DNA of 64,000 bases, from positions 3,627-67,626 of the IMG/VR virus record IMGVR_UViG_3300033463_000105; one strand, written 5' to 3'. Position 1 is the stretch's first letter, and each line of letters starts with the position of its first letter. The notes below the pieces were generated by a model, which saw nothing but the letters and a program-made list of their open reading frames with translations, searched no databases and was not told the DNA's origin. The translations under genes and the position numbers were made by a program. This document shows, one piece after another, positions 2,363 through 60,258 of the stretch. The stretch comes from a virus.

Positions 2363-4332
2363 TACAGATTCCTCCTGTTTTCTACTTCAAAGATGATTGT
2401 GTTCACCGGCCCGTTCAATGTAAATGTATTTGTTCTGAACGGTAGTATCCTCGGGAAGTGTCTGCTCCCAAGAATCTTATAATAATCACCGCTCACATAA
2501 TTTGTTTCTCCATCAAGGACTATAGTTGTACTAATCGGCATATCAGTGAGTTCCGTCTTTCTTGCAGCATTATCTGTCTGATTGATAATAAGTATCGTTC
2601 CAGAGCCCAGATTAGTCCATCCGGATGTGCCGTTAGAAGAAACCTGCCACTGGTAAGTTAAACCATCACCCTGAGCCTCAACAGACAAATCTACGGTTCC
2701 ATTAAGAACAGTATACGTTGATGTTGGCTGCGACGTAATAATCGGAGCGCCATTTGTGACAACTGTTAAAGTTGCGGCAGACGATGTGAATGTTTTATCA
2801 ATCTGAGCATCCTCGGGACTCTCGCCGGGATCTACTGATGGAATCATGTAATGAATAGTTCCAGAAACAACACATCTGAATTGCCATCCGTCATTCCCGC
2901 TTACAGCCTCAAAACCATAGATTATATTATTGTTGCCCTCACCAGTACAATTTTTCCACGTACTTCCGTTATCTTTGCTAACCTGCCATTGATATGTGAT
3001 GTCTTCACCATAAGCCTCTACAGAGAAGCTAACCCTGTCGCCAGGTTTTGCCGTGATATTCTGCGGATTAGTCCTAATAATAGATGTACCGTCCGAAGAC
3101 GTTTCACCAACAGTGTTGGCGTCCAGTGTAACAGTATTGGAGTTGACTGAGTGGTCGTTTATATCAGTTACAACACACTTAATATGGCTTACATCATACG
3201 CAGAAGTCATGTTAAATGTTACTTCCGGCAAAGTATCTCCGTTAACTCCAAGATTCTCCCATGTGCTTGAAGTACGTTTCTTCTTCATCCACTGATAGCT
3301 CAGACCGTTACCAACGGCCTCGATACTGAACGAAACAGGATATCCAATAAAGCCTATCGTATTAACTGGCTGTTTCACAACCGTAACATATGGAGAGGAT
3401 GACACATTATATCCTCTAACAAGAGCTGCGTCAGAAGTAGTACTGACCCCGTTTCTTGTTACTATGCACCTATAGTACTTATTGCTGGATGTAGCAACGG
3501 GGGAGAGCGTCCTCCCGTTTGCTCCATCAGTGAACCCGCCGGACGAGCCGGACGTAATCGTTACCCTAGGATAAATGTAGGTGTCGGAATCCGTATTTGG
3601 AGTCAGGCTGATGTTTGATGTAGCGCCAGCAGACTGATTCACAGAGTATGTATATGTAACCGGATCTTGAAGCCACCATCCGGTGTCTGCCTCAAGTGTA
3701 ACTCTATATCCGACAATGCCGCCGTTATACTCAAGCTTTGTCGGGTTGATGAATCTGCATCTTAAAAATCTGCGGTGTGCGATAACAGTGTTGCCGCTCC
3801 TGCTGAATGTGGATGTAATAGTAGGGGAGCCGGTTGCCTCAGTCATTGTCGTTCCGCTTAGAGTAACGTTAGACATATCCTCATACGCCGTACCATTCCA
3901 TCTCTTGGCAGTATATGTAGTGCCGCTAGAAAGAACGAGGTACACAACTCCAACCTCCTGGCCAGTATTAGGTCTGGAAGTAACTATCTGATATTTGTCA
4001 TACGTCCCGAAATCATAATCATCATCCGGGTCAATATATAGTTTCATGTTCTTCGCTCGGTTGAAGAGCCACCTTTCAACCTCTTCTTGTTCGAGCTTGT
4101 TAAGGGTGCGCTCATCGTCCGTCACGATATCAATGTCATATGAAACGGGGGAGGAGGTATAGTCTGTATCAATAAGGTAGTTTCTCTTGCTTCTCTTATT
4201 GAAAATGTTCACTCCAGATATCTGCCCTTGAACATTAATAAATCTGTCCGTCTCTACATTTACAAAGTGAAGACCGTGCGTCCTAGATGAGATGCCGCCG
4301 TATTCAAAATGACAACAGTAGATATCAGCCAC
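2362..4332 (-). CDS. Distal tail (Dit)-like protein with inserted Ig-like repeats
   Basis: Dit-like N-terminus (FEYGGISS...WLF) and YPRVTI motif. About three Ig-like units (QP...SVEA.G..LTYQWQ....W). Lies after the tape measure gene. Confidence 0.7.
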   Translation of the reverse strand: MADIYCCHFEYGGISSRTHGLHFVNVETDRFINVQGQISGVNIFNKRSKRNYLIDTDYTSSPVSYDIDIVTDDERTLNKLEQEEVERWLFNRAKNMKLYIDPDDDYDFGTYDKYQIVTSRPNTGQEVGVVYLVLSSGTTYTAKRWNGTAYEDMSNVTLSGTTMTEATGSPTITSTFSRSGNTVIAHRRFLRCRFINPTKLEYNGGIVGYRVTLEADTGWWLQDPVTYTYSVNQSAGATSNISLTPNTDSDTYIYPRVTITSGSSGGFTDGANGRTLSPVATSSNKYYRCIVTRNGVSTTSDAALVRGYNVSSSPYVTVVKQPVNTIGFIGYPVSFSIEAVGNGLSYQWMKKKRTSSTWENLGVNGDTLPEVTFNMTSAYDVSHIKCVVTDINDHSVNSNTVTLDANTVGETSSDGTSIIRTNPQNITAKPGDRVSFSVEAYGEDITYQWQVSKDNGSTWKNCTGEGNNNIIYGFEAVSGNDGWQFRCVVSGTIHYMIPSVDPGESPEDAQIDKTFTSSAATLTVVTNGAPIITSQPTSTYTVLNGTVDLSVEAQGDGLTYQWQVSSNGTSGWTNLGSGTILIINQTDNAARKTELTDMPISTTIVLDGETNYVSGDYYKILGSRHFPRILPFRTNTFTLNGPVNTIIFEVENRRNL

Positions 4333-49692: not shown

Positions 49693-51114
49693 ATGTTTAA
49701 AACAGAGGTATATGCCACTCCGTTTACTTCGGAAGCCGCAAATGATATGTTTCAGCGGATTTCCAGCGGAGTTATTGGCAATGATGTGTCGTTGATATCG
49801 ACACTTAGGGCCTTAGTTGGTCCAAGAATGGGCGAGAATGATACGCTCATGGTTCGGTCGTACTCAAGGGTGCGTGATTTTGCATCACTGCTGAGTGATG
49901 TGCTGATGTATCGTGACCAGTTTGTCATCTTCAACTTCTGTTCGAGGTATTACAGCTCGGAAGATGAGATGATGGATTACATCCATCGTTGTGAGAAGAT
50001 GCTGGCGGACATGAAAGACCCGGTTTCGTGGACAAAGATTGAAAAGGTCACGGTGTTCTTCAACAAGCAGTTCTATGCGAGTTGTTTTGTGTGTCCGAAT
50101 GAGAAAGTAAGTGTCCTGCTCATCAAAGATATGGATGTCAAGGAGTTGCATTATCTCCAGTGTGGTATAATGGCATACTTCCCGTGGTATTTCAGCAAGG
50201 AAGTCGGCATCACAGAACTCGAAAAGAAATTGCTCGAGTCGCTGAGAGAAAAGACGGCAGACAACTACATGAAAACGCTGGAAAAAATGGCGGAACTGTA
50301 CGATTTCCGCAAGTACAAGATAGAAAAGTATCTGAGCGGGTTTGAAACGAACATTGAGGCGATAGAACTCCGCAAGTGTGAGGAAAAGTACAGTGAAATC
50401 ATGGAGTATCTCAATGATTTGAACAACAGAATCTCACAGAATCTTCGCGAGAAGCGTTCGCTTGATGCAAGGATAGCTGGTTTGCACGAAGCAATTGCAA
50501 AGAACGGCGGCAGGAACGACTTCATGGAGTTCTTCCTGAGAACAAAGTGTCTGGTCGTTGAGGGTGTAAGCGGAGATACCATTACATATGGCGTCAAAGC
50601 TTGTCTCGATGTCCCTGACAAGGATTTGGCGGCAAGCGTAATCAACAACAGAGATAGTGTTATCTATACGGGTCGCTACTTCTCCGCTGATGATATGAGG
50701 AATCTGTTCAATGCAATCTGCATTGACGAAAAGGTAAAGCTGAGGCTTTGTGCAATGTATCAGATTCGTCTCGGCGGAAACATCGGTGCAATAGCTCGTG
50801 CGACATACAGTCACGAGTATGACGGGTACACGCCGAATCCTCACATCCAGCAGCACCGATGCATGGGTGCGTATCTGAGTATCATCAATCAGATTATCGC
50901 TGAGACGGGGGATTATGTGCAGGCTGTTGCTCAGTCAATCGAGTCTTGCCGGTCTCTGAATCTGAATGAGTGGGCGTCGATGAGTCCGTTCATCAACCAT
51001 ATCAACAACGAGCCGGACACCAAGTGCATCGAGCTTCCGGATGGAAGTGTGGTTTCGTTCAAACAGGCAATCAAATATCTGAGAGGAGTGTATGCAAATG
51101 GCGAAGATAATTAA
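49693..51114 (+). CDS. Putative E2-like (ubiquitin-conjugating fold) protein with coiled coil
   Basis: C-terminal PNPHI....CMG motif typical of prokaryotic E2 families; operon context. Confidence 0.55.
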   Translation: MFKTEVYATPFTSEAANDMFQRISSGVIGNDVSLISTLRALVGPRMGENDTLMVRSYSRVRDFASLLSDVLMYRDQFVIFNFCSRYYSSEDEMMDYIHRCEKMLADMKDPVSWTKIEKVTVFFNKQFYASCFVCPNEKVSVLLIKDMDVKELHYLQCGIMAYFPWYFSKEVGITELEKKLLESLREKTADNYMKTLEKMAELYDFRKYKIEKYLSGFETNIEAIELRKCEEKYSEIMEYLNDLNNRISQNLREKRSLDARIAGLHEAIAKNGGRNDFMEFFLRTKCLVVEGVSGDTITYGVKACLDVPDKDLAASVINNRDSVIYTGRYFSADDMRNLFNAICIDEKVKLRLCAMYQIRLGGNIGAIARATYSHEYDGYTPNPHIQQHRCMGAYLSIINQIIAETGDYVQAVAQSIESCRSLNLNEWASMSPFINHINNEPDTKCIELPDGSVVSFKQAIKYLRGVYANGEDN

Positions 51115-51994
51115 GCTCACGCCTGATGAAATCGAGCAGGCAAGAAAAGAGTTTGAGGAATCTCTCGCGAGCCTCAAGCTGTCAGATGGAAAGATAAGTT
51201 TCACCAAGTCGTTTTCTTCTATCCAGAGGAAAGCGACTATTTATTTTACGGAGCTTGCGTGGCTGAAGATGCAGACTCTCGTAAGGGAGTTTGATAAAGA
51301 GGTCGCGTGGCACGGTGTTGCAACGAGGGGCGAAGACCCCGAGAAAGATGAGTATTTCATCACGGACATTCTGGTTTATCCGCAGAATGTTACGGGTGCA
51401 ACTGTCACGACCGTTCAGGAAGAGTACGAGGAATGGCTGAACAGTCTGGAAGACGATGTGTTCAACAATCTAAGAATGCAGGGGCACTCCCATGTGAATA
51501 TGGGAACGACGCCGTCTGGCGTAGACAACACGCTGTACGAAAGCATTCTCGGGCAGTTGAAGTCGTCTATGTTCTACATCTTTATGATTTGGAATAAGCG
51601 TGGAGAGAAGACGGTCAAGCTGTACGATATGGCAAAGAATGTGCTGTTCGAGACGGCGGATTGTTCCATTGAGATTCTCGATGATGGAACTGGGACTGAG
51701 GCGTTCCTGAAAGATGCAAAGACAAAAGTGAGGACGACTACTGTTACTCCGGTAACATATGCCGTTCAGACAAAGACTCCGGAAAAGCCGGCGGCTGTCG
51801 CTCCGGTAAAAACAAAGGAAGCAAATAAGCCAAGAATGGGGAAGCGTGTAAAGAAAGAGGAAAAGAAAGACGATAACAAAGACGTCAAGATGGCAAGCGG
51901 ATATGGATACGGTCATTACTACGAGGACGGATACTACAACGACGAATATGACCCGAGAGATCCGTTTAGTTGGTACGACGGACGCTGGTATTGA
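51092..51994 (+). CDS. JAB/MPN metallopeptidase
   Basis: EVAW...GHSHVNMGTTPSGVD (HxH-x7-S-x2-D). Confidence 0.85.
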   Translation: MQMAKIIKLTPDEIEQARKEFEESLASLKLSDGKISFTKSFSSIQRKATIYFTELAWLKMQTLVREFDKEVAWHGVATRGEDPEKDEYFITDILVYPQNVTGATVTTVQEEYEEWLNSLEDDVFNNLRMQGHSHVNMGTTPSGVDNTLYESILGQLKSSMFYIFMIWNKRGEKTVKLYDMAKNVLFETADCSIEILDDGTGTEAFLKDAKTKVRTTTVTPVTYAVQTKTPEKPAAVAPVKTKEANKPRMGKRVKKEEKKDDNKDVKMASGYGYGHYYEDGYYNDEYDPRDPFSWYDGRWY

Positions 51995-52008
51995 AAGGAG
52001 GATGAACG

Positions 52009-52554
52009 ATGGACTACGAAAACATGACGCTAGAGCAGTTCGATGAAGAAATCTGTGATTTCGGAGACTTGAAAGACTGGTGCTATGAACACGAATGTGA
52101 CATCTGCGAGGACATCTACAGCGAAGATGACATGAACTACCAGATTAACGAATCTCTGGTTGACTGGGCGCGTGAGTATGAGTGGCAGGAACTGTATCGG
52201 ATTCTGGACAACATCCCGTCCGGTGAAAACTGGTATCGCTGGAGTGACTACGGAGAATGGGTATATGCGGAGGGCGATTTCGATGAGTATAAAGAAGACG
52301 TCCGCCGGTGGGGTATTCGGAACGGCGAGTTCAACGAAAACTCGTTTGACGACGAGGACGAAGAGGAAGAGGTAGACCCGTATATCCTCGAGCCGACAGA
52401 GAAAGAGGACGTGGCGTTGGATGATATGTTCTCCAGCGACGAAATCCCAATGGTCGAGGTCAAAGAAGATGACCGTGAGTCTGAAGAAGAGCAGGAAGAG
52501 TTCTATGACGTCTTCGTTCCCGAGGATTCTGAGGACTTGGATTGGCTCGCATAA
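52009..52554 (+). CDS. Highly acidic protein
   Basis: Very D/E-rich, 181 aa, lies between JAB and E1. Confidence 0.7.
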   Translation: MDYENMTLEQFDEEICDFGDLKDWCYEHECDICEDIYSEDDMNYQINESLVDWAREYEWQELYRILDNIPSGENWYRWSDYGEWVYAEGDFDEYKEDVRRWGIRNGEFNENSFDDEDEEEEVDPYILEPTEKEDVALDDMFSSDEIPMVEVKEDDRESEEEQEEFYDVFVPEDSEDLDWLA

Positions 52555-52572
52555 ATGAATGGAGGTTAAACA

Positions 52573-53244
52573 ATGAATCTGACAAAATCATACGACTTTT
52601 TTCAGCCTGAAAAGGTAGACGGGAGAGTCCACATCATCGGTTGTGGCTCCGTCGGCTCCACTCTCGCAGAGAATCTTGCCCGTTGCGGCATCACGAAGAT
52701 GACTCTGTGGGATTTTGACACGGTTTCTGCCCACAACATCCACAATCAGATGTTCTTTGAGCAGGATATCGGCAAGCCAAAGGTGTATGCACTGCGGGAT
52801 AATCTGATGATGATTAATCCTGACATCGAGAAAGACCTCGTTCTGAAGCCGGATGGATGGAACGGCGAAAAGCTGAGCGGGTATATCTTCCTCGCAATGG
52901 ACTCCATCGAGATTCGCAAACAGATTTGCGAGACAAACATGAATAATATGAATATTCATGCAGTGTTCGACTTCCGCACGGAACTCACGGGTGCACAGCA
53001 CTATGCTGCGGATTGGATGGATTATAAGCAGAAGCAGAATCTGATGTCCACCATGGATTTCACGCACGAAGAAGCGGTTGCGGAAGCTCCGACCTCCGCC
53101 TGCGGAGTAACCCTGGGAGTGGTCACGACTGTGCGGCTGATTTGTGCCATCGGCGTGAACAATTTCATCAGGTTCATCAAGGGAGAGAAGCCGTGGAAGT
53201 TCTGTCAGGTCGATGGGTTCCGTGGATTCTGGGATTGTTTCTAA
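52573..53244 (+). CDS. ThiF/E1-like adenylyltransferase
   Basis: IIGCGSVGS, DFDTV..HN..NQ, IGKPKV and TSACG (candidate catalytic Cys). Confidence 0.9.
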   Translation: MNLTKSYDFFQPEKVDGRVHIIGCGSVGSTLAENLARCGITKMTLWDFDTVSAHNIHNQMFFEQDIGKPKVYALRDNLMMINPDIEKDLVLKPDGWNGEKLSGYIFLAMDSIEIRKQICETNMNNMNIHAVFDFRTELTGAQHYAADWMDYKQKQNLMSTMDFTHEEAVAEAPTSACGVTLGVVTTVRLICAIGVNNFIRFIKGEKPWKFCQVDGFRGFWDCF

Positions 53245-53266
53245 TGAAAGGAGTTGTGCAAGAAGT

Positions 53267-53548
53267 ATGAGCGAAGTTTGTGAGGAAGTGTACTGTCGCG
53301 GATGTGATGAAATCTCCACGCTTGACTATGGAGAACACCGAGATACTTGTCCAAGATGCGGAAGCTACAACATTGCAATCATGCGGTTTGTTGAGTGTGA
53401 CTGCGGTGATATCGTATATCTTGATGGGTTCACCAACGAGTGCTACAAATGCGGAGCATTATACAACGGTTTCGGACAGCAGCTGGCTCCGCCGGAAGAA
53501 TGGGATGAGGAAGACAGGTATGTCTGCTTCGGTCCGCAAAACTACTAA
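53267..53548 (+). CDS. Small Cys-rich Zn-ribbon protein
   Basis: CxxC/CxC pairs and YNGFGQQLAPPEEW; RBS GAAAGGAG. Confidence 0.7.
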   Translation: MSEVCEEVYCRGCDEISTLDYGEHRDTCPRCGSYNIAIMRFVECDCGDIVYLDGFTNECYKCGALYNGFGQQLAPPEEWDEEDRYVCFGPQNY

Positions 53549-53555
53549 ACAATAA

Positions 53556-53774
53556 TTGCTTACAATGCATACTGTTTAACAGGCTTCTGCCGATGGCGGA
53601 ATGTAACACATTGTTCGAGAAGAGGGGTGCCCGGGCGTGCCAAATTGTAGCAAGTTTAAACGCGTCAGGGTCCGAAGCCCGTTGCAATGCAACAGCCTCA
53701 ACTCGAATAAAATACTATAAACTCCAGAATGGACTGCGGCTTACCGTCGGGCATTCTACTTAGATTGTAAGCAA
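53556..53774 (+). ncRNA. Retron-like msr-msd unit 1
   Basis: Arms TTGCTTACAAT (53556-66) / ATTGTAAGCAA (53764-74); G53567; two hairpins; GTAACA. Confidence 0.8.
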
Positions 53775-53775
53775 A

Positions 53776-54002
53776 TCAGGTAATGCATAACTATGGCGAC
53801 ATAGTGCTCCTCGCGTTACGCAGGATGTAACAACTTGAAAGAAGAAGATGGGGGACGCTGGAAATGACGCCGCGGCAGCTGGTGCGGGCTTACAACTAGC
53901 CCATTGTTGTGCCACAACAGCTTCCGACAAATTTCCAAGCGTAATTGATCGCCGGCTGATCATGGCGCAGCCTTCCTTCGAGCTTCTCTTTTGATTACCT
54001 GA
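53776..54002 (+). ncRNA. Retron-like msr-msd unit 2
   Basis: Arms TCAGGTAAT (53776-84) / ATTACCTGA (53994-54002); G53785; hairpins ACTATG/CATAGT and TCCTcGCG/CGCAGGA; GTAACA. Confidence 0.8.
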
Positions 54003-54031
54003 AAAATAAAAAGGATTTATGGGGGTGTAAA

Positions 54032-54187
54032 ATGCTTATTCACAATGTAGGAGAGATGAAGAAATTTCTGGAAGACATTCCAGACGATGTGGAGATTGGT
54101 ATTCCGCTTGCATATTGCGATTGCTGTGTGAATGCGAGTTTCTATTACGATGAAGAGGACGGCAGTATTTCAATCATTGAAGAATAA
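54032..54187 (+). CDS. Small acidic 51-aa protein inside the ncRNA array
   Basis: Read manually: MLIHNVGEMKKFLEDIPDDVEIGIPLAYCDCCVNASFYYDEEDGSISIIEE. Confidence 0.6.
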   Translation: MLIHNVGEMKKFLEDIPDDVEIGIPLAYCDCCVNASFYYDEEDGSISIIEE

Positions 54188-54199
54188 ATAACATAAAAA

Positions 54200-54473
54200 T
54201 CTGCGATGCATTTATCTGTTTCAGATAGCTTCTGCCGACGGCGGAAGTAACACTTTGCTCCGAAAGAGGGAGACGGGCGGACGACTGGGAACCACGAGGT
54301 TCTCGGGCGCATAAGGCTCTGATGGGACTGTGTGCAGGCTGTAAGCCAAGGTCAACACCCAATAAGACACCTGTAACAGAAGTCCCACCACCTGAATTCA
54401 CCTGGATTTTACATTTATCCACAGCTCGCCACCTCCGAGTCCCTCGGATGGAAAATATACACTAGATCGCAGA
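54200..54473 (+). ncRNA. Retron-like msr-msd unit 3
   Basis: Arms TCTGCGAT (54200-07) / ATCGCAGA (54466-73); G54208; TATCTG/CAGATA and CTTCTGCC/GGCGGAAG; GTAACA. Confidence 0.8.
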
Positions 54474-54493
54474 ACAAAAGAATGGAGGTAATT

Positions 54494-55894
54494 ATGGTCT
54501 ATATCACGGTAAAACAGTCTCCGGTATACAAGCAGATGTCGTTTGAAGAGTTTCTGTTTGGAGACATCAAAGAGGGTTCGCTGATTGTGAATAATATCAC
54601 GAACACGCGGACTTATGAACAGGAGTTTCTGAGCGGCAGATTCAGTAACAAACTGTTCAAAATGTACGGGACGACCCCGTACGAAATGATTAAGAAACTA
54701 CATGATTTCAATGACTCCACGGCGGCTCTCCGTGCGGTTCCTCGTAAGGAATTGTACAGAGAGTTTTATATTCCGAAAAGAAGCGGCGGTCTGAGGAAGA
54801 TTGACGCTCCAAACGATGACCTGAAGCAGGCTCTTCGCAGGCTCAAGAAGATTTTCGAGGAAGATTTTCACTGCCTGTATTACACCACGGCTTTCGCATA
54901 TGTGAAAGGCAGAAGCACGGTGGACGCGGTTAAGCGTCATCAGGCGAATGAGAGCAAATGGTTTGCCAAGTTTGACCTGTCGAACTTCTTTGGAAGCACC
55001 ACGCTGGACTTTGTGATGAGGATGTTCTCAATGATATTCCCGTTCAGCGAAATCATTAACTATGGCGGAAAGAGGGAACTCGAAACTGCTTTGGAACTTG
55101 CGTTCCTTGACGGCGGTCTTCCGCAGGGTACGCCGATTTCTCCAACTATCACGAACATCATGATGATTCCGATTGATTACACCATCAACAAGCAGCTCAG
55201 GGGTGACAACATCGGGATGCCGTACATCAAGGTGGCAAAAGAGGAGTGGGTTTCTGGCAAGGCGTATAACCAAGGCGATATTGTGTGTCACGAGGGTAAG
55301 TCTTGGATAAGCGAGATTATCGGCAACACATATGAGCCTGGAGTTCCGGATGAATTCTTCGGAATGCAGTACTGGAAAGAGAAAAAGCAGTCGTTTGTGT
55401 ACACAAGATACGCAGACGACTTTTTGATTTCCAGTAAGTATGACTTCAGGGTCTTCGAGATGATGGGGTATATCTGCAGGGTTCTTGCGAAATTTGAAGC
55501 CCCGTTCACCATCAAACCATCCAAGACCAGGTATGGTTCGTCCGCAGGTTCTAACTGGAACCTAGGCGTAATGCTGAATAAGGACAACAAAATCACGGTG
55601 GGGCATAAGAAAAAGCGTCAGCTCCAGTCGATGCTTCACTCGTTCATCATGGACACGAAGAATGGGAAGCAGTGGGAACTGAACGACATTCAGGTAATGG
55701 CGGGGTATCACAGCTATTACAGAATGGTTGAGGCTGACGCAATCGACGGAATCATTAAGCACATCAACGAGAAGCATGGAGTCGATGTGCTGAAGATGAT
55801 AAAGGAACAGTTAAACGCAAATCACGGAGTGATTCAGTCTGAACACTATGAGCCTATTGACATAGAGGAAGACGAAGAACTGCCGTGGCATTAA
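54494..55894 (+). CDS. Retron-like reverse transcriptase with inserted CBM5/12-like domain
   Basis: IPKRSGGLRKIDAP, DAVKRH (region X-like), KFDLSNFF, LPQGTPISP, YTRYADD, NLGV. Start placed after GGAGG at 54494. Confidence 0.9.
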   Translation: MVYITVKQSPVYKQMSFEEFLFGDIKEGSLIVNNITNTRTYEQEFLSGRFSNKLFKMYGTTPYEMIKKLHDFNDSTAALRAVPRKELYREFYIPKRSGGLRKIDAPNDDLKQALRRLKKIFEEDFHCLYYTTAFAYVKGRSTVDAVKRHQANESKWFAKFDLSNFFGSTTLDFVMRMFSMIFPFSEIINYGGKRELETALELAFLDGGLPQGTPISPTITNIMMIPIDYTINKQLRGDNIGMPYIKVAKEEWVSGKAYNQGDIVCHEGKSWISEIIGNTYEPGVPDEFFGMQYWKEKKQSFVYTRYADDFLISSKYDFRVFEMMGYICRVLAKFEAPFTIKPSKTRYGSSAGSNWNLGVMLNKDNKITVGHKKKRQLQSMLHSFIMDTKNGKQWELNDIQVMAGYHSYYRMVEADAIDGIIKHINEKHGVDVLKMIKEQLNANHGVIQSEHYEPIDIEEDEELPWH

Positions 55895-55909
55895 GGAGTA
55901 GGTAGGCAG

Positions 55910-56228
55910 GGCGTTGTACAATGCATTGTTTTTTGAGTAATCAAAACGCTTCCCGCTAAGAGCGGAAGTAACAGTTTGACCGAGAGGAAGGAGACCCGGA
56001 AGGAGGACATGCACGGCCGGAGCGGCTTCGCTGTCAGAGATGCGCCAGTTCCAAGAACCGCAATCAAGCCGTTTGGACAGAAAGAACATCAGTAAAATCC
56101 TCATTAAGTCCGAACAAAGTCTTGACAAGGCGGTGGCAGCCGTGTAACCAGTCGCCGTAAGGAGGTCAAAGCAGCGTCTCCGGTGGCCTTCAGGATCCAA
56201 AAAGGTCTTATGTAGATTGTAGAGCGCC
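55910..56228 (+). ncRNA. Retron-like msr-msd unit 4
   Basis: Arms GGCGTTGTACAAT (55910-22) / ATTGTAGAGCGCC (56216-28); G55923; TTTTGA/TCAAAA and CTTCCcGCT/AGCGGAAG; GTAACA. Confidence 0.75.
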
Positions 56229-56380
56229 TACATCCTGAAGAATCGGAAAGGAGTCGAGTACAATGAAACATTGGTACTCAAAAGCACCGCCCTAACGCGG
56301 TGCTTGAAATTTGAAGAAGATTGTAAGCGGCAACCCCATGCCTAAAAAGGGTTATTACGGATAAAGGTATTTTCCCCAGC

Positions 56381-56589
56381 GACTTGCATGTAATTGGTTT
56401 TTACAGGAGGAACCGCTCATAGCCGAGTGCGTGAGTAACACAGCGACTATGTCTCTCTTGCAGATCGGGAAATTATCCAGATCCAGCTACGCCGGAATTG
56501 GATAATTTCACCTCACGGCAAGTTCACAGAGGCATTATATCAAAAAGCCACAACACTAGTCTTAGCTTTTTGATAAATGGATGCAAGTC
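56381..56589 (+). ncRNA. Retron-like msr-msd unit 5
   Basis: Arms GACTTGCAT (56381-89) / ATGCAAGTC (56581-89); G56390; two hairpins; GTAACA; two long downstream hairpins. Confidence 0.75.
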
Positions 56590-56615
56590 CAAACTAAAAC
56601 GAAGGAGGATTTCAA

Positions 56616-56774
56616 ATGACAGAAAGACAGAAAGAAATTTGGGACACGTTATGCGAATTGGATAGCGAAAGAGTTCTTGTATTGTTGACAGACTGGTACG
56701 GTTTGCAGCTTTTCGATGACGAGTTCTTCGATTTTCTTATTGATGAGGGGGTTCTTGATGAACAGGAAGTGTAG
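56616..56774 (+). CDS. Small acidic protein (52 aa)
   Basis: Read manually: MTERQKEIWDTLCELD...; RBS AAGGAGG. Confidence 0.6.
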   Translation: MTERQKEIWDTLCELDSERVLVLLTDWYGLQLFDDEFFDFLIDEGVLDEQEV

Positions 56775-57147
56775 CTTTGACAAGCTGTATGAAAGCGATG
56801 TCCTAAAGAGACCGATGACCCCGAGCAAATGGGTGACAAAAGATGTGTACTACCAGCCTATCACAAGAATCAAGATGAGTTGTGGTGGTGGCATCGGTGG
56901 AAGCACATGGTACGAGTACGTGGATAGAATTCCTCTGGAAGCACTTGCTGCTGTTGGAACCGGCGGGATGGTTTTCCATACATTTGATGGTAAAGATGTA
57001 CTTTTAAACATGGATTATATCGTGAAAGCAGAGCAATTCACTGTGGCATGCGCCGTGCTAAATAGCGAGAACCCAAATTTTCCAAAAGGATACTGGATGT
57101 TCTGCTACCTCGTTGAGGATGGGCACAAGATAACGCTGATAGATTGA
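56758..57147 (+). CDS. Hypothetical protein
   Basis: Start reassigned to MNRKC. Confidence 0.55.
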   Translation: MNRKCSFDKLYESDVLKRPMTPSKWVTKDVYYQPITRIKMSCGGGIGGSTWYEYVDRIPLEALAAVGTGGMVFHTFDGKDVLLNMDYIVKAEQFTVACAVLNSENPNFPKGYWMFCYLVEDGHKITLID

Positions 57148-57159
57148 GAGGAGAATACA

Positions 57160-57378
57160 ATGGAAGATAAATATTTCGGCATAGTAAGATGGTGTGATGA
57201 TGACATTGCAGCTCTACTATTCGCCAAAGGGATTGACGAGACTGAAGACAATATCTGTGCAGTTCGCGTAGCCTGCGAGAACAACCATCACTTCACAGAC
57301 GCGATGATTGAGGCTGGATGGGAGACTCTTGAGTATATGGTAGATGAGGTTTTTGACGAGGACGGGAATATAAGATGA
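57160..57378 (+). CDS. Hypothetical protein
   Basis: RBS GAGGAG. Confidence 0.65.
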   Translation: MEDKYFGIVRWCDDDIAALLFAKGIDETEDNICAVRVACENNHHFTDAMIEAGWETLEYMVDEVFDEDGNIR

Positions 57379-57662
57379 GTGATACTTTTGATTTGATTAT
57401 TCCGTTGCCGTCTGGCAACAATCTGGTAGTCTCTCAGAATAGAGACCAAGAATACGAAAATGAAATCTTCATTGGATTGGTAGATAATCGTGGCTGTTGG
57501 TTTCAAGATTTGGCGGTCGTCAGGAATGCTTATGACATTGACGAGAACTGGCGGGTTGTGTGGAAAAAAGGACAGATGGAAGTGCTGGTTTATGGCGACG
57601 AGTTTGATGAGGATTATACGCACAAATTCTATATAAATGAAAGAGAAGACGAGGAGCTGTAA
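57375..57662 (+). CDS. Hypothetical protein
   Basis: Coupled ORF. Confidence 0.65.
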   Translation: MSDTFDLIIPLPSGNNLVVSQNRDQEYENEIFIGLVDNRGCWFQDLAVVRNAYDIDENWRVVWKKGQMEVLVYGDEFDEDYTHKFYINEREDEEL

Positions 57663-57685
57663 TTGCCGTATGAGGAGGAGAGCCA

Positions 57686-58048
57686 ATGACTGACAGACAG
57701 ATACGTAAGGCAAGGGAATCTTTGCCGTCAATATGCAGGATTCCGTATAATGAATGGACTGACGAACAAAAGCAGTTGGACAAGGAGCTTTCTTGCCGTG
57801 AAATGATGAACTCGTGTCTCGCTTACGGAGGGATGAAGGAGTTTTGGCGTCGACATGATAGTCTGTTTACTCCAGGTGAAGTCAACTGCGGGTATGCTGA
57901 CAGCCACGTTGAGAAGCTTGGTCTCAAGAGAGTAAGGGAATTAGAGCGCGAACAGGAAGAGGACTTCGCCAAAGCGAAACTGTACAGAAATACGTTCACA
58001 GACAGCGAGGGAGTCACATACAACACTATCGTATGGGGGGATGAATGA
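57686..58048 (+). CDS. Hypothetical protein
   Basis: RBS; C-terminal TDSEGVTYN. Confidence 0.65.
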   Translation: MTDRQIRKARESLPSICRIPYNEWTDEQKQLDKELSCREMMNSCLAYGGMKEFWRRHDSLFTPGEVNCGYADSHVEKLGLKRVRELEREQEEDFAKAKLYRNTFTDSEGVTYNTIVWGDE

Positions 58049-58325
58049 GATGGCGGTGTGCGAAGCATGTAACAGAGAAATGCTTAAGGCAAATGGTTGC
58101 ACATTTAAATATGTGAGGACGTTTTCTGGAAAGTATTACAAACGGATGCTGGTTGGAGAAGAAGGATGGACGAATCCGGGAGAGCGTTGCGGTGATTGTG
58201 GTGCAAAATACGGCAACTATCACCATCCTGGATGCGATGTTGAAAGATGCCCAATATGCGGCGGGCAGGTTATAAGTTGTGATTGCGACATTGATGCGTT
58301 CACAACAACAAAGAGTGGAGGGTGA
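58041..58325 (+). CDS. Cys/His-rich Zn-binding protein
   Basis: CGDCG...HHPGCDVERCPICGGQ..SCDC. Confidence 0.7.
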   Translation: MNEMAVCEACNREMLKANGCTFKYVRTFSGKYYKRMLVGEEGWTNPGERCGDCGAKYGNYHHPGCDVERCPICGGQVISCDCDIDAFTTTKSGG

Positions 58326-58328
58326 CAG

Positions 58329-58733
58329 GTGAACAACGATAATCTGTATAACCAAATCTGCAGAGTGCTGACGAATTATGAGGAAATGTCAACAACCGGG
58401 AAGGATTTGGATACTGAGTGCAGTATGTACGCAATAGCGGCGTCAGATATGTATGACGTCCTTGTTAATTGTCAGCGCATGTTTGATAGCGATATGATTC
58501 CTGCGGATTATCACGACCAGTGCATGGAATCAGAGTCTACGAAGAGACTTGAGACAGAGAAGCGGGCTGGTTCGCTTGAGGATTTCTGCAAATTTGTTTC
58601 CGAATGTATCCTAGCTGAAAGCTTTGAGAGCGGAGCTGGTTTCTTTGCAGAGGTAGCGGCCAGAAAGCTGGAAAAGCTTGGGTTCATTAAGGCATCTGAC
58701 GACGGTTTGTGGTGGGTCTTAGATGAGAAATGA
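58329..58733 (+). CDS. Hypothetical protein
   Basis: ORF in operon. Confidence 0.55.
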   Translation: MNNDNLYNQICRVLTNYEEMSTTGKDLDTECSMYAIAASDMYDVLVNCQRMFDSDMIPADYHDQCMESESTKRLETEKRAGSLEDFCKFVSECILAESFESGAGFFAEVAARKLEKLGFIKASDDGLWWVLDEK

Positions 58734-59121
58734 TTCAGAACCCAATGTGTCGAACATACGAGCATACATTGGGATTGATGACGAGCCGCAGATAATCGTT
58801 GAGTGGGACGGCTGGATGAGCAAAGATAAGATGTGTTACATTATGTGGCATATGGACGGCATTGATTTTTGTAAAATCTCACTACGCACAGGGCATCCAA
58901 TATTTGCAAACATAACATCGGATGGCGTGCTATCAGCGAGAATAGAGGGTTATTGTGTTAGAGATTCTAGCGGGTATTATCTAGATTATGTAGCCACAAG
59001 TGTTCCTACTGGAAGAAAATGCTTTTTGCGTAGCATGCCAATCTTTGATACATATATAAAGAGCGACATTCAGCGGCTGTATAAGAAGTTTTCCGATGCG
59101 ATTGAAAAGGAGTTAATATGA
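58723..59121 (+). CDS. Hypothetical protein
   Basis: Coupled ORF. Confidence 0.55.
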   Translation: MRNDSEPNVSNIRAYIGIDDEPQIIVEWDGWMSKDKMCYIMWHMDGIDFCKISLRTGHPIFANITSDGVLSARIEGYCVRDSSGYYLDYVATSVPTGRKCFLRSMPIFDTYIKSDIQRLYKKFSDAIEKELI

Positions 59122-59288
59122 AGTATAGAGTTGTGTATACAATTACAACTGTAAAGGAAATCGATGTTGATGCGGCGTCTGTTGACGAGGCGCAGGCAAT
59201 GTGGGAAGACGAAGGTTATGACGGCGAGCTGTTCTTCATTGAGGATGAGAACGGCAATCAGGTAATCTATGATTGAGGAGAATCAATA

Positions 59289-59660
59289 ATGGAATACTAT
59301 ATCAATCCAAGCTGGTTTTATTGGATTAAAGTTATAGACGGAATCCAAACAGCTTTTATTGTTTTTGGCGTTGTATTTGGTATACTTGTGGTTTGTTTAA
59401 GCATAGCATATTTTGCTGAAAGGTCTTGTATATTTGATGAGGACGACGAACAAAATGTAGCGAGAATATTTCTTTTCTTAAGAATATCTATTGTTGTATT
59501 CATCGTCGCTGTTCTTGGAGCCGTTTTTTTTACTAATCGCAACACACTTATTGAAATACAAATTGCCAAATACGCCACGCGGGAAAATGTAGATACCACG
59601 GTCGAGTCTATTAAATCCATTATAGACTACGTCGTTGAGTCTATAGGCAGTCTGAAATAA
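59289..59660 (+). CDS. Two-TM membrane protein
   Basis: INPSWFYW start and two hydrophobic helices. Confidence 0.7.
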   Translation: MEYYINPSWFYWIKVIDGIQTAFIVFGVVFGILVVCLSIAYFAERSCIFDEDDEQNVARIFLFLRISIVVFIVAVLGAVFFTNRNTLIEIQIAKYATRENVDTTVESIKSIIDYVVESIGSLK

Positions 59661-59680
59661 CATAGAAAGGAGCTGACGCT

Positions 59681-59941
59681 ATGCGGTTAATCAATGCGGA
59701 TGATATTCCATGGACAAACACAAGCATAGGCGACCAGGTGGTTTTCAAAACTATCATTGACAATATGCCAACGGTAATGGCGGACAGAACTGAAATAATG
59801 TCAACGATTTTTGACACCGTAGAACGTTACGATAATTGCACAGTGGAAGTGCTGACAAATAGTGTGACTGGCGAGCAGTCGATTGGATGGTGGGACAATG
59901 AGTGCCCACCTGAATTTGTTTCTGGAGGTGATTTTGAATGA
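59681..59941 (+). CDS. MRLINAD-family hybrid protein
   Basis: Family N-terminus plus NCTVEVL.NSVTGE.SIGWW. Confidence 0.65.
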   Translation: MRLINADDIPWTNTSIGDQVVFKTIIDNMPTVMADRTEIMSTIFDTVERYDNCTVEVLTNSVTGEQSIGWWDNECPPEFVSGGDFE

Positions 59942-60258
59942 GCGGCGGAGCAATGGACTACGTTTATGGGCGCATTTATGATTTATCGTATCAGGAAAAT
60001 GATCCGATAATTAAGAAGCTGCTGATTGATTTATCGGAGTATCTGCACGCAGAGGAATGGTGGCTTTCCGGAGACACGTGTAAAGAAACGTATATGGAGG
60101 AAAGAAAAAAGTTCAAGGATAAGTGGATTAAGCTCGACAGCAAGGTCAATATCGATGAGTTTATTTCCGAGGAACTTGAGCGTGTGAAGAAAGAACTGTA
60201 CGAAGCTTTGGACGTGAAATGGTATGACGAAGACGGGGAGGAACACGACTATGCCTAA
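59938..60258 (+). CDS. Hypothetical protein (MSGG..DY type)
   Basis: EWWLSGD motif; coupled. Confidence 0.65.
   Translation: MSGGAMDYVYGRIYDLSYQENDPIIKKLLIDLSEYLHAEEWWLSGDTCKETYMEERKKFKDKWIKLDSKVNIDEFISEELERVKKELYEALDVKWYDEDGEEHDYA

Follow-up and report, generated by a model that had tools for sequence, protein, structure and literature searches.

How does the reverse transcriptase of a tailed phage come to carry, within its catalytic palm, a small domain of a kind otherwise met on chitinases and phage tail proteins, and what could such a domain do there? We addressed this question in a 64,000-nucleotide stretch of DNA (hereafter the window), which covers positions 3,627 to 67,626 of the IMG/VR virus record IMGVR_UViG_3300033463_000105 and in which an open reading frame (ORF) of 470 amino acids (aa) at 54482..55894 on the + strand encodes a retron-type reverse transcriptase (RT), as identified by RVT_1, PADLOC and fold matches. 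A preliminary description, made from the letters of the window, had pointed to about 60 extra residues between the LPQGTPISP and YTRYADD motifs of this enzyme and had read them as a domain of the carbohydrate-binding module type CBM5/12. We find that the parts, a retron-type RT and the CBM5/12 fold, are known, and that their combination is rare and new.

The extra residues in the palm of the reverse transcriptase

Residues are numbered on the 470-aa ORF from the ATG at 54482. We aligned the window protein with the best 120 of its 4,498 database relatives (n=121) and found that the catalytic motifs on either side of the extra stretch are intact: RT motif 4, LPQGTPISP (aa 213-221, 55118..55144, + strand), and the catalytic YADD of RT motif 5 (aa 310-313, 55409..55420, + strand), which lies within YTRYADD at aa 307-313, are both invariant in the 121 proteins. 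Between the likewise invariant R240 and Q303, the window protein has a lineage-specific stretch of 62 residues (aa 241-302, 55202..55387, + strand), in good agreement with the span of 55200-55390 given in the preliminary description, and the peptide quoted there, EEWVSGKAYNQGDIVCHEGKSWISEIIGNTYEPGVPDEFFGMQYWKE, corresponds to aa 254-300. The same stretch measures 4 residues in 115 of the 121 proteins and 62-64 residues in three of them, namely the window protein and the protein clusters P0002 and P0003; intermediate lengths of 12, 20 and 37 residues are seen in P0005, P0004 and P0011.

The stretch had also been described as short in retron RTs, and this holds as well. In the solved retron RTs Ec83 and Ec78, about 2 residues stand in the place of these 62 (the alignment to Ec83 pairs query 81-235 with chain 18-169 and query 297-442 with chain 172-307), and all 25 listed PADLOC RT profiles match the window RT in two or three pieces that are broken at the insert. 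The possibility of a universal loop of this family was looked for in phage loci too. Among 71 RTs taken from phage loci of IMG/VR and GenBank, the length of the loop is 1-21 residues (4 residues in 50 of them), with a CBM-like loop in none of the 71; the insert is absent from ten further loci inspected by eye and from locus L049, where 285 codons cover query 105-446 (tblastn span). Overall, it is carried by three of the 121 close homologs and by 0 of 82 phage loci, and it is thus no universal loop. Judged from these alignments, the stretch is a true insertion relative both to retron RTs and to its own family.

Next we examined the identity of the inserted sequence. In isolation, the insert matches the Pfam family CBM_5_12 (PF02839) with 27.4 bits (E 3.6e-6; cut-off 26.2), and it scores 27.1 bits in a six-frame scan of the phage record; the scan of the whole protein gives 24.0 bits, under the cut-off of 26.2. 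A phmmer search with a 69-residue stretch against 1.84 billion representatives returned 146 matches at E <= 0.001, ten of them at E <= 1e-10, with 1-21 matched stretches in each protein and several in nearly all. No RT was found among these 146 matches. CBM_5_12 was present in all ten of the matches that we tested (E 2.8e-6 to 1.7e-31), collagen repeats were present in two, and nine of the ten matched phrog_18593 (unknown function) and four the tail-fibre PHROGs. Searched singly against PDB sequences, the stretch gave eight matches, all of them binding domains of chitinases or chitin deacetylases, at weak scores (best E 0.054).

A profile was more sensitive than the single stretch: a 30-sequence alignment of CBM5/12 homologs that includes the RT-borne copies (A3) matched 35 PDB sequences at E <= 0.01, for the most part chitin-binding domains and led by chitinase 60 (4.4e-6), the ChiA1 chitin-binding domain (7.2e-6) and ChiC. 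Its non-carbohydrate matches in the PDB were an intradiol dioxygenase, a baseplate protein of a contractile-injection system and a DUF3472 protein. In the columns of A3, W256, Y262, V268 and P286 are invariant and G265, D266, G272 and W275 nearly so, and the terminal W298 is present in all three RT-borne copies. A feature search of the ESM Atlas with aa 240-304 reached at best 0.76, for an unnamed cluster, which is under the level that the tool treats as meaningful. Collectively, these results identify the insert as a genuine but divergent CBM5/12 domain.

The structural comparisons point to the same family. An AlphaFold2 (AF2) model of the insert by itself had a predicted local distance difference test score (pLDDT) of 81, with 92-95 in the core blocks; it was built on A3, that is, on CBM5/12 homologs found by sequence, which is a caveat on any fold match obtained with it. 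In a Foldseek search with this model, the chitin-binding domains of SmChiB, MmChi60, ChiC and Pyrococcus came out ahead, with a root-mean-square deviation (rmsd) of 1.5-2 Å over ~46 columns. The best row, 1E15, had an rmsd of 1.9 Å, 46 columns and an E value of 4e-3, and nothing was found at <= 1e-3, as is usual for a small domain. The second-look aligner VIA gave Z scores of 7.1-5 for the insert model, and its wide scan, which is independent of Foldseek, returned 30 of 48,161 chains at Z >= 2, with a top Z of 7.0. Most of these wide matches are CBM5/12/73 domains, domains of phage tail fibres, tailspikes and baseplates, and the T4 capsid proteins gp24 and gp23. A Z score below 8 is not decisive when taken alone; the assignment to CBM5/12 is firm because the list of structural matches is specific and the sequence evidence supports it. 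A search of BFVD with the insert model found phage 'ChiA1-BD' proteins. The structural counterpart that had been sought was therefore found, and the expectation that this fold normally occurs in chitinases and phage tail proteins was borne out by the PDB, PHROG and BFVD matches. On this modelling, the insert is predicted to adopt the small beta fold, with three strands, that is seen in solved CBM5/12 domains.

Within the insert, three parts can be told apart. By sequence alignment, an N-terminal linker, GDNIGMPYIKVAK, occupies aa 241-253 (55202..55240, + strand). It is followed by the CBM5/12-fold core at aa 254-300 (55241..55381, + strand), as delimited by PF02839, by alignment A3 and by the core pLDDT of 92-95 in the AF2 model. 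Inside this core, A3 places an RT-specific extension of the last loop, VPDEFFGMQY, at aa 288-297 (55343..55372, + strand). The extension is identical in P0002 and reads xIDEYFGEVNGV in P0003, at a position where ordinary repeats have 2-4 residues (EPGVYGW), and all three RT-borne copies share the last loop EPG-x-x-DE-[FY]-FG...W, which is missing from ordinary repeats.

Carriers of the domain and the turn that holds it

We then examined how the domain is distributed. In a word-indexed search, the insert of the window protein found P0002 only and that of P0003 found only itself; such an index needs shared 5-mers, which makes this weak evidence of rarity. Contigs from two runs of a second study (records 17 and 24) are colinear across the insert at ~90% identity, and an assembly artefact was rejected on this ground. 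In a tree of 45 family members, from which the insert columns had been removed, the window protein, P0002, P0003 and P0004 form a clade with a support of 99 in the Shimodaira-Hasegawa-like approximate likelihood ratio test (SH-aLRT), with P0005 as its sister (93) and without a settled order inside the clade.

Compared with the window protein, P0002 is identical at 51 of 62 positions of the insert and at 356 of 375 positions of the RT core, and the 25 residues S277-K301 show no difference between the two. The values for P0003 are 31 of 62 and 305 of 375, with all fold-core residues kept and a single 2-aa insertion or deletion. These comparisons show that the insert stayed open, folded and colinear in relatives with RT cores that are 5% and 19% different. 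The remaining member of the clade, P0004, keeps the linker pattern N-GM-Y-K in its loop and lacks the domain core. The domain may have been lost in P0004, or it may have been acquired elsewhere in the clade by a loop that had grown longer beforehand. As for its origin, we found no second CBM_5_12 in the 67.6-kb record of this phage, which is 57% complete (the missing 43% of the genome could hold one), and none in five near-complete related phages (107-137 kb). The donor is outside the sequences examined.

The turn that holds the domain has received other sequence as well. P0011 and P0021 are identical at 369 of 381 positions (12 substitutions), and P0011 has in addition a 33-aa CxxC...CxxC insertion at the same turn, which matches Pfam Zn_ribbon_3 with an E value of 0.037 only. 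By comparison of these two proteins, the zinc-ribbon-like insertion in P0011 is a second, recent and independent uptake at the site.

Additions also occur at other places in RTs of this family. Locus L057 (3001-4368) has ~77 extra aa after the PKxxG motif, L074 (3001-4335) has two additions, one of ~45 aa in its N-terminal region and one of ~11 aa ahead of the same turn, L001 (3001-4206) has ~18 extra aa after HQA, and L063 (3001-4212) has a lineage-specific insertion at a different site of the RT. The family seems unusually tolerant of additions.

Possible roles of the domain

Whether the domain could bind sugar depends on a few aromatic residues. According to PMC8449059, CBM5/12 domains have two aromatics in the hydrophobic core (Y265 and W299 of CjCBM5) and bind chitin via a consecutive surface pair, Y-W or W-W, to which a third aromatic adds, and such modules have a millimolar affinity for soluble oligomers. 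The core positions are taken by Y262 and W298 of the insert, a match to the CjCBM5 residues made by pattern and not by direct alignment to 6Z40. The site of the surface pair falls on I279-I280 (55316..55321, + strand), which aligns to the W-W of the MmChi60 CBM5. In the profile alignment, the chitin-binding aromatic pair is missing from all three RT-borne copies, which have Ile-Ile in the window protein and P0002 and G-E in P0003; the nearest phage repeats are likewise without the W-W pair (A3). Y284 stands at the position of the W before EPG in CBM12 and in the phage repeats, and this residue is Ser in P0003. We assume that this Trp has a role in binding in B. circulans ChiA1 (Trp687), for which a confirmation in the literature was not found.

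The CBM5/12 aromatic signature that had been described is thus present as a pattern, but its residues belong mostly to the fold core (W256, Y262, W275, W298), and the chitin-binding pair is replaced by I279-I280. Judged by these residues, the fold is kept and the classical sugar-binding face is not, and ligand binding as in chitinases is not supported. The preliminary description had proposed either an accessory ligand-binding or sensing module or a tolerated graft: with the aromatic pair absent, the chitinase-like ligand binding loses its support, and both the accessory and the graft reading remain. The insert is furthermore acidic, with an isoelectric point (pI) of 4.9 and 10 Asp and Glu against 7 Lys and Arg (pI 5.0-5.7 for the inserts of the relatives), on an RT core of pI 9.3, and nine of its 62 residues are aromatic.

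From these observations we propose that a single ~47-residue unit of CBM5/12 fold, with short linkers, was spliced in frame into a surface turn of the RT in one small sub-lineage. The turn would be the one between the motif-4 helix and the beta-strand that runs into YADD; in the model of the RT, the helices past motif 4 are at 220-227 and 229-240 and end at R240. The unit is of a type that occurs in strings in phage tail fibres and in small phage proteins of unknown function. Going by the general architecture of RTs, the outer base of the palm is the expected place of this turn, which would put it clear of the template-primer cleft, and because of this location the domain may hang off the enzyme without touching catalysis.

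With a probability of roughly one half, the domain is a non-catalytic docking surface, to which a protein partner, or else a further copy or component of the RT-RNA-DNA particle, would bind. We favour this role because the aromatic pair is absent, because an acidic domain sits on a basic enzyme and because the RT-specific loop EPG-x-x-DE-[FY]-FG is conserved. In addition, the list of structural matches of the insert is dominated by phage structural proteins, with matches to the insertion domain of T4 gp24/gp23, to N-terminal parts of tailspikes and to baseplate proteins, and some such proteins rely on the fold for contacts between proteins. The domain is probably neither a chitin binder nor a nucleic-acid clamp.

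Several points weigh against a docking role. The carriers amount to three protein clusters only, and the CBM_5_12 scores of P0002 and P0003, 16.9 and 16.0 bits, are under the cut-off. The RT core of P0004 resembles that of the window protein as closely as the core of P0003 does (304 of 375 identical), yet P0004 has a 20-aa loop without the domain, and since its RT looks intact, the domain would be dispensable. Change in the insert is 2.5-3.5 times faster than in the core, and 8 of the 11 differences between the window and P0002 inserts fall within the 16 residues of the first hairpin (aa 257-271), a clustering that fits relaxed constraint as well as it fits an evolving binding face. A folded insert in an essential enzyme is expected to be under selection even if it has no function. 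The model of the full-length enzyme gives the insert a pLDDT of 48-61, at which its orientation on the enzyme is unreadable, and its placement away from the cleft is drawn from the general architecture of RTs.

It is possible, if on balance unlikely, that the insert is a neutral graft, that is, a tail-fibre-type unit that arrived by illegitimate recombination, is tolerated and persists by folding on its own and doing no harm. The loop is a hot spot of length variation (1-21 aa, and also 12, 20 and 37 aa), the unrelated zinc ribbon is a very recent arrival at the same spot, and lineage-specific insertions are found elsewhere in the RTs of L057, L074, L001 and L063; the lack of the domain in P0004, the faster change of the insert relative to the core and the restriction to three clusters all fit a passenger. 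Against this, the frame, the length and all of the fold-core residues have been retained over 19% core divergence, the identity of S277-K301 between the window protein and P0002 is complete and all three carriers have conserved the DE[FY]FG loop. A passenger free of constraint would have kept less order, although part of this order could come from selection for foldability alone. The homology to carbohydrate-binding modules also brings up a true carbohydrate sensor, of the N-acetylglucosamine (GlcNAc) type, which would recognise a molecule in the cytoplasm that bears sugar, for instance a precursor of the cell wall or sugar-modified DNA, and link this binding to the activity or the location of the RT. 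We regard this as improbable: the aromatic Y284, which takes the place of the W that precedes EPG in CBM12 and the phage repeats, speaks in its favour but is Ser in P0003, the CBM5 aromatic pair has become Ile-Ile or Gly-Glu, the cytoplasm of a rumen bacterium would contain no chitin, and the millimolar affinity of such modules for soluble oligomers counts against it as well.

Nine aromatics on an enzyme that handles structured RNA and single-stranded DNA (ssDNA) could alternatively make the insert a nucleic-acid clamp, in which an aromatic-rich beta-domain stacks on the bases of the template RNA or of the ssDNA product and thereby alters processivity or product retention. The acidic net charge of the insert (pI 4.9, and 5.0-5.7 in the relatives), the fact that most of the aromatics are residues of the fold core and the expected position at the palm base, remote from the cleft, make a clamp highly improbable. 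Hardly credible, finally, is an insert that is absent from the mature enzyme, be it an assembly chimera, an intein or an in-frame intron. A chimera is contradicted by the contigs of an independent study, in which the insert is colinear, and by two further protein clusters that have it. At 62 aa it is far too small for an intein, and no Cys, Ser or Thr nucleophile stands at its junctions (G241 at one end, K302 followed by Q303 at the other). An intron is at odds with an insert that is in frame and has protein homology throughout, in a region (50000-60000) without an Rfam match at E <= 1.

A bolder extension of the docking role, which we consider doubtful, is that the turn from the motif-4 helix into the YADD strand acts as a "plug-in port" on which different lineages mount different small recognition domains, the CBM5/12 unit here and the zinc ribbon in P0011. 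Through each of these, the RT-RNA-DNA particle would be anchored to a different target of the cell or the virus, and the variable first hairpin of the CBM unit would be engaged in an arms race with its target.

Foreign self-folding domains nested in the catalytic palm of an RT are unusual, and here a virion-type module is re-used within an intracellular enzyme. Should the domain be functional, it would offer a handle on the cellular contacts of phage RT-RNA systems that are common and unexplained. Even if it is neutral, the turn has taken up 33-64 extra residues twice, as a CBM unit and as a zinc ribbon, beside intact catalytic motifs, and it may therefore be a candidate site for domain fusions in retron-type editors, with the termini left free.

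The host enzyme, its locus and known systems

The source record has 67,626 bases and is 57% complete (CheckV). It belongs to a tailed phage, with a 2,882-aa tape-measure protein, a large terminase and a portal protein encoded, and near-identical public sequence was found only in two runs of one bovine gut metagenome sample, from which the record probably derives. The RT has motifs 1-7 with a catalytic YxDD, and its body matches Pfam RVT_1 (E 2.3e-18), PADLOC retron RT profiles (to E 2e-43, RT_II-A best) and PHROG 2825. It stays below the cut-off of the named families, with 161.3 bits against a required 235 for NCBIfam retron_St85_RT and lower values for the other retron RT families. In the full-length AF2 model, which was built with the 121 homologs and has a pLDDT of 75.5, the RT body is well modelled, and the first 11 rows of a Foldseek search with it are all retron RTs, with Eco7/Ec78, Ec83, Ec86 and Eco2 in the lead; Ec83 and Ec78 are also the best matches of a phmmer search of PDB sequences. 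A VTG triplet after motif 7 is a hallmark of retron RTs. The VTG of Ec83 ('hvtGvtl') and Ec78 ('hvtGiti') faces 'wnlGvml' in the window RT, with G alone in common (HMMER). In this region of the window RT (aa 358-366, ~55553-55579), the NLG lies in a block, SNWNLGVMLN, that is invariant across the homologs.

The 4,498 database relatives are typically ~380 aa long and are encoded on phage contigs of 40-190 kb. Among GenBank phages, 18 records have an RT match, of which the best, MT835544.1, is 35.9% identical and is without the insert. The window RT is a member of a very large family of retron-type RTs of big tailed gut phages. Its translation probably starts at the ATG at 54494 (466 aa) instead of the ATG at 54482, because a GGAGG at 54484-54488 sits 5 nucleotides upstream of the former and homologs begin with MVYITV; the version of the protein in the ESM Atlas begins at residue 5. 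The upstream ATG at 54482 overlaps the GGAGG at 54484-54488.

A second lineage-specific addition is an acidic C-terminal tail (aa 442-470, 55805..55891, + strand), which has a pI of 4.1 and ends in EEDEELPWH. C-terminal tails of more than 12 aa are found in three of the 121 homologs, namely the window protein, P0002 (..DDGEELPWH) and P0005 (..DDVVDGEIPW). We liken this tail to the acidic [IL]-P-[FW] tip of bacterial single-stranded DNA-binding (SSB) proteins, which recruits partner enzymes.

The RT gene is flanked by non-coding repeat units, all on the + strand. Three are upstream (~53550-53775, 53768-54010 and 54190-54480; repeat families D1, D2 and D7, alignment A4) and two of the same kind are downstream (~55905-56300 and 56372-56600; repeats, alignment A4). 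The five units have a common 5′ box, ATGCAT...GCGGAAGTAACAC, and a 3′ GATT.TA, and are presumed to be the template RNAs of the RT; Rfam gave zero matches at E <= 1 in the region 50000-60000. In a ~90% identical relative, the inner parts at 54287-54457 and 56021-56194 are swapped for unrelated sequence of about the same length (169 letters), with the flanks and the RT alike, from which it follows that these presumed template RNAs are quick to exchange their "cargo". A 51-codon acidic ORF (54032-54187, MLIHNVGEMKKFLEDIPDD...) without a Pfam match separates the second unit from the third.

Just upstream of this array of RNA units and RT is a ThiF/E1-like gene (52573-53244; Pfam ThiF, E 1.2e-22). 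A ubiquitin-like conjugation cluster had been suggested for this neighbourhood; the ThiF/E1-like gene agrees with the suggestion, and the other genes of the cluster are without a Pfam match at E <= 0.01. A Pfam scan of the ten flanking ORFs recognised no effector gene among them.

At the level of titles and abstracts, we found no published pairing of a carbohydrate-binding module with a retron-type RT, and nothing on this RT family in the literature on phage-encoded RTs and retrons. The CBM5/12 domains of chitinases (SmChiB, 1E15; Moritella Chi60, 4HMC; S. griseus ChiC, 2D49; B. circulans ChiA1, 1ED7) have the same small beta fold as the insert, with an rmsd of 1.5-2 Å over 45-49 residues and Z scores of 5-7, and share with it the two core aromatics and the pattern GD..V.H.G..W...EPG..W. 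They are appended to secreted hydrolases, whereas the insert is nested inside a cytoplasmic polymerase and has a last loop that is 8-10 residues longer, with the conserved DE[FY]FG. The nearest relatives of the insert are phage repeat proteins (phrog_18593 and phrog_30034, tail-fibre PHROGs 9851 and 5073, and collagen-like tail fibres), with 35-59% identity over ~30-40 residues, full-protein E values to 8e-24 that are summed over up to 21 repeats, and the common form 'N.[WY]EPG'. In these virion proteins or proteins of unknown function the units are mostly multiple, 2-21 in tandem, as opposed to the one unit inside an enzyme that we describe here.

Bacterial retron RTs (Ec83, Ec78/Eco7, St85, Ec86/Eco1 and Ec67/Eco2) have the same order of motifs and the YADD, and the structured non-coding units beside their genes have putative counterparts in the repeat units of the window. 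Unlike them, the window RT is phage-borne and is accompanied by five presumed RNA units, with no recognised effector among the scanned flanking ORFs, and its sub-lineage differs from the rest of the phage RT family in the addition of the CBM-type insert and of the acidic C-terminal tail. Insertions between RT motifs are known from other enzymes, such as the insertion in fingers domain (IFD) of telomerase between motifs A and B' and the blocks 2a, 3a and 4a of group II intron and non-LTR (long terminal repeat) RTs, which also place extra polypeptide between the motifs and leave catalysis intact. Those insertions are family-wide elaborations of the RT fold, whereas the window RT carries a foreign, self-folding domain that has clear relatives elsewhere and is found in only a few members of its family.

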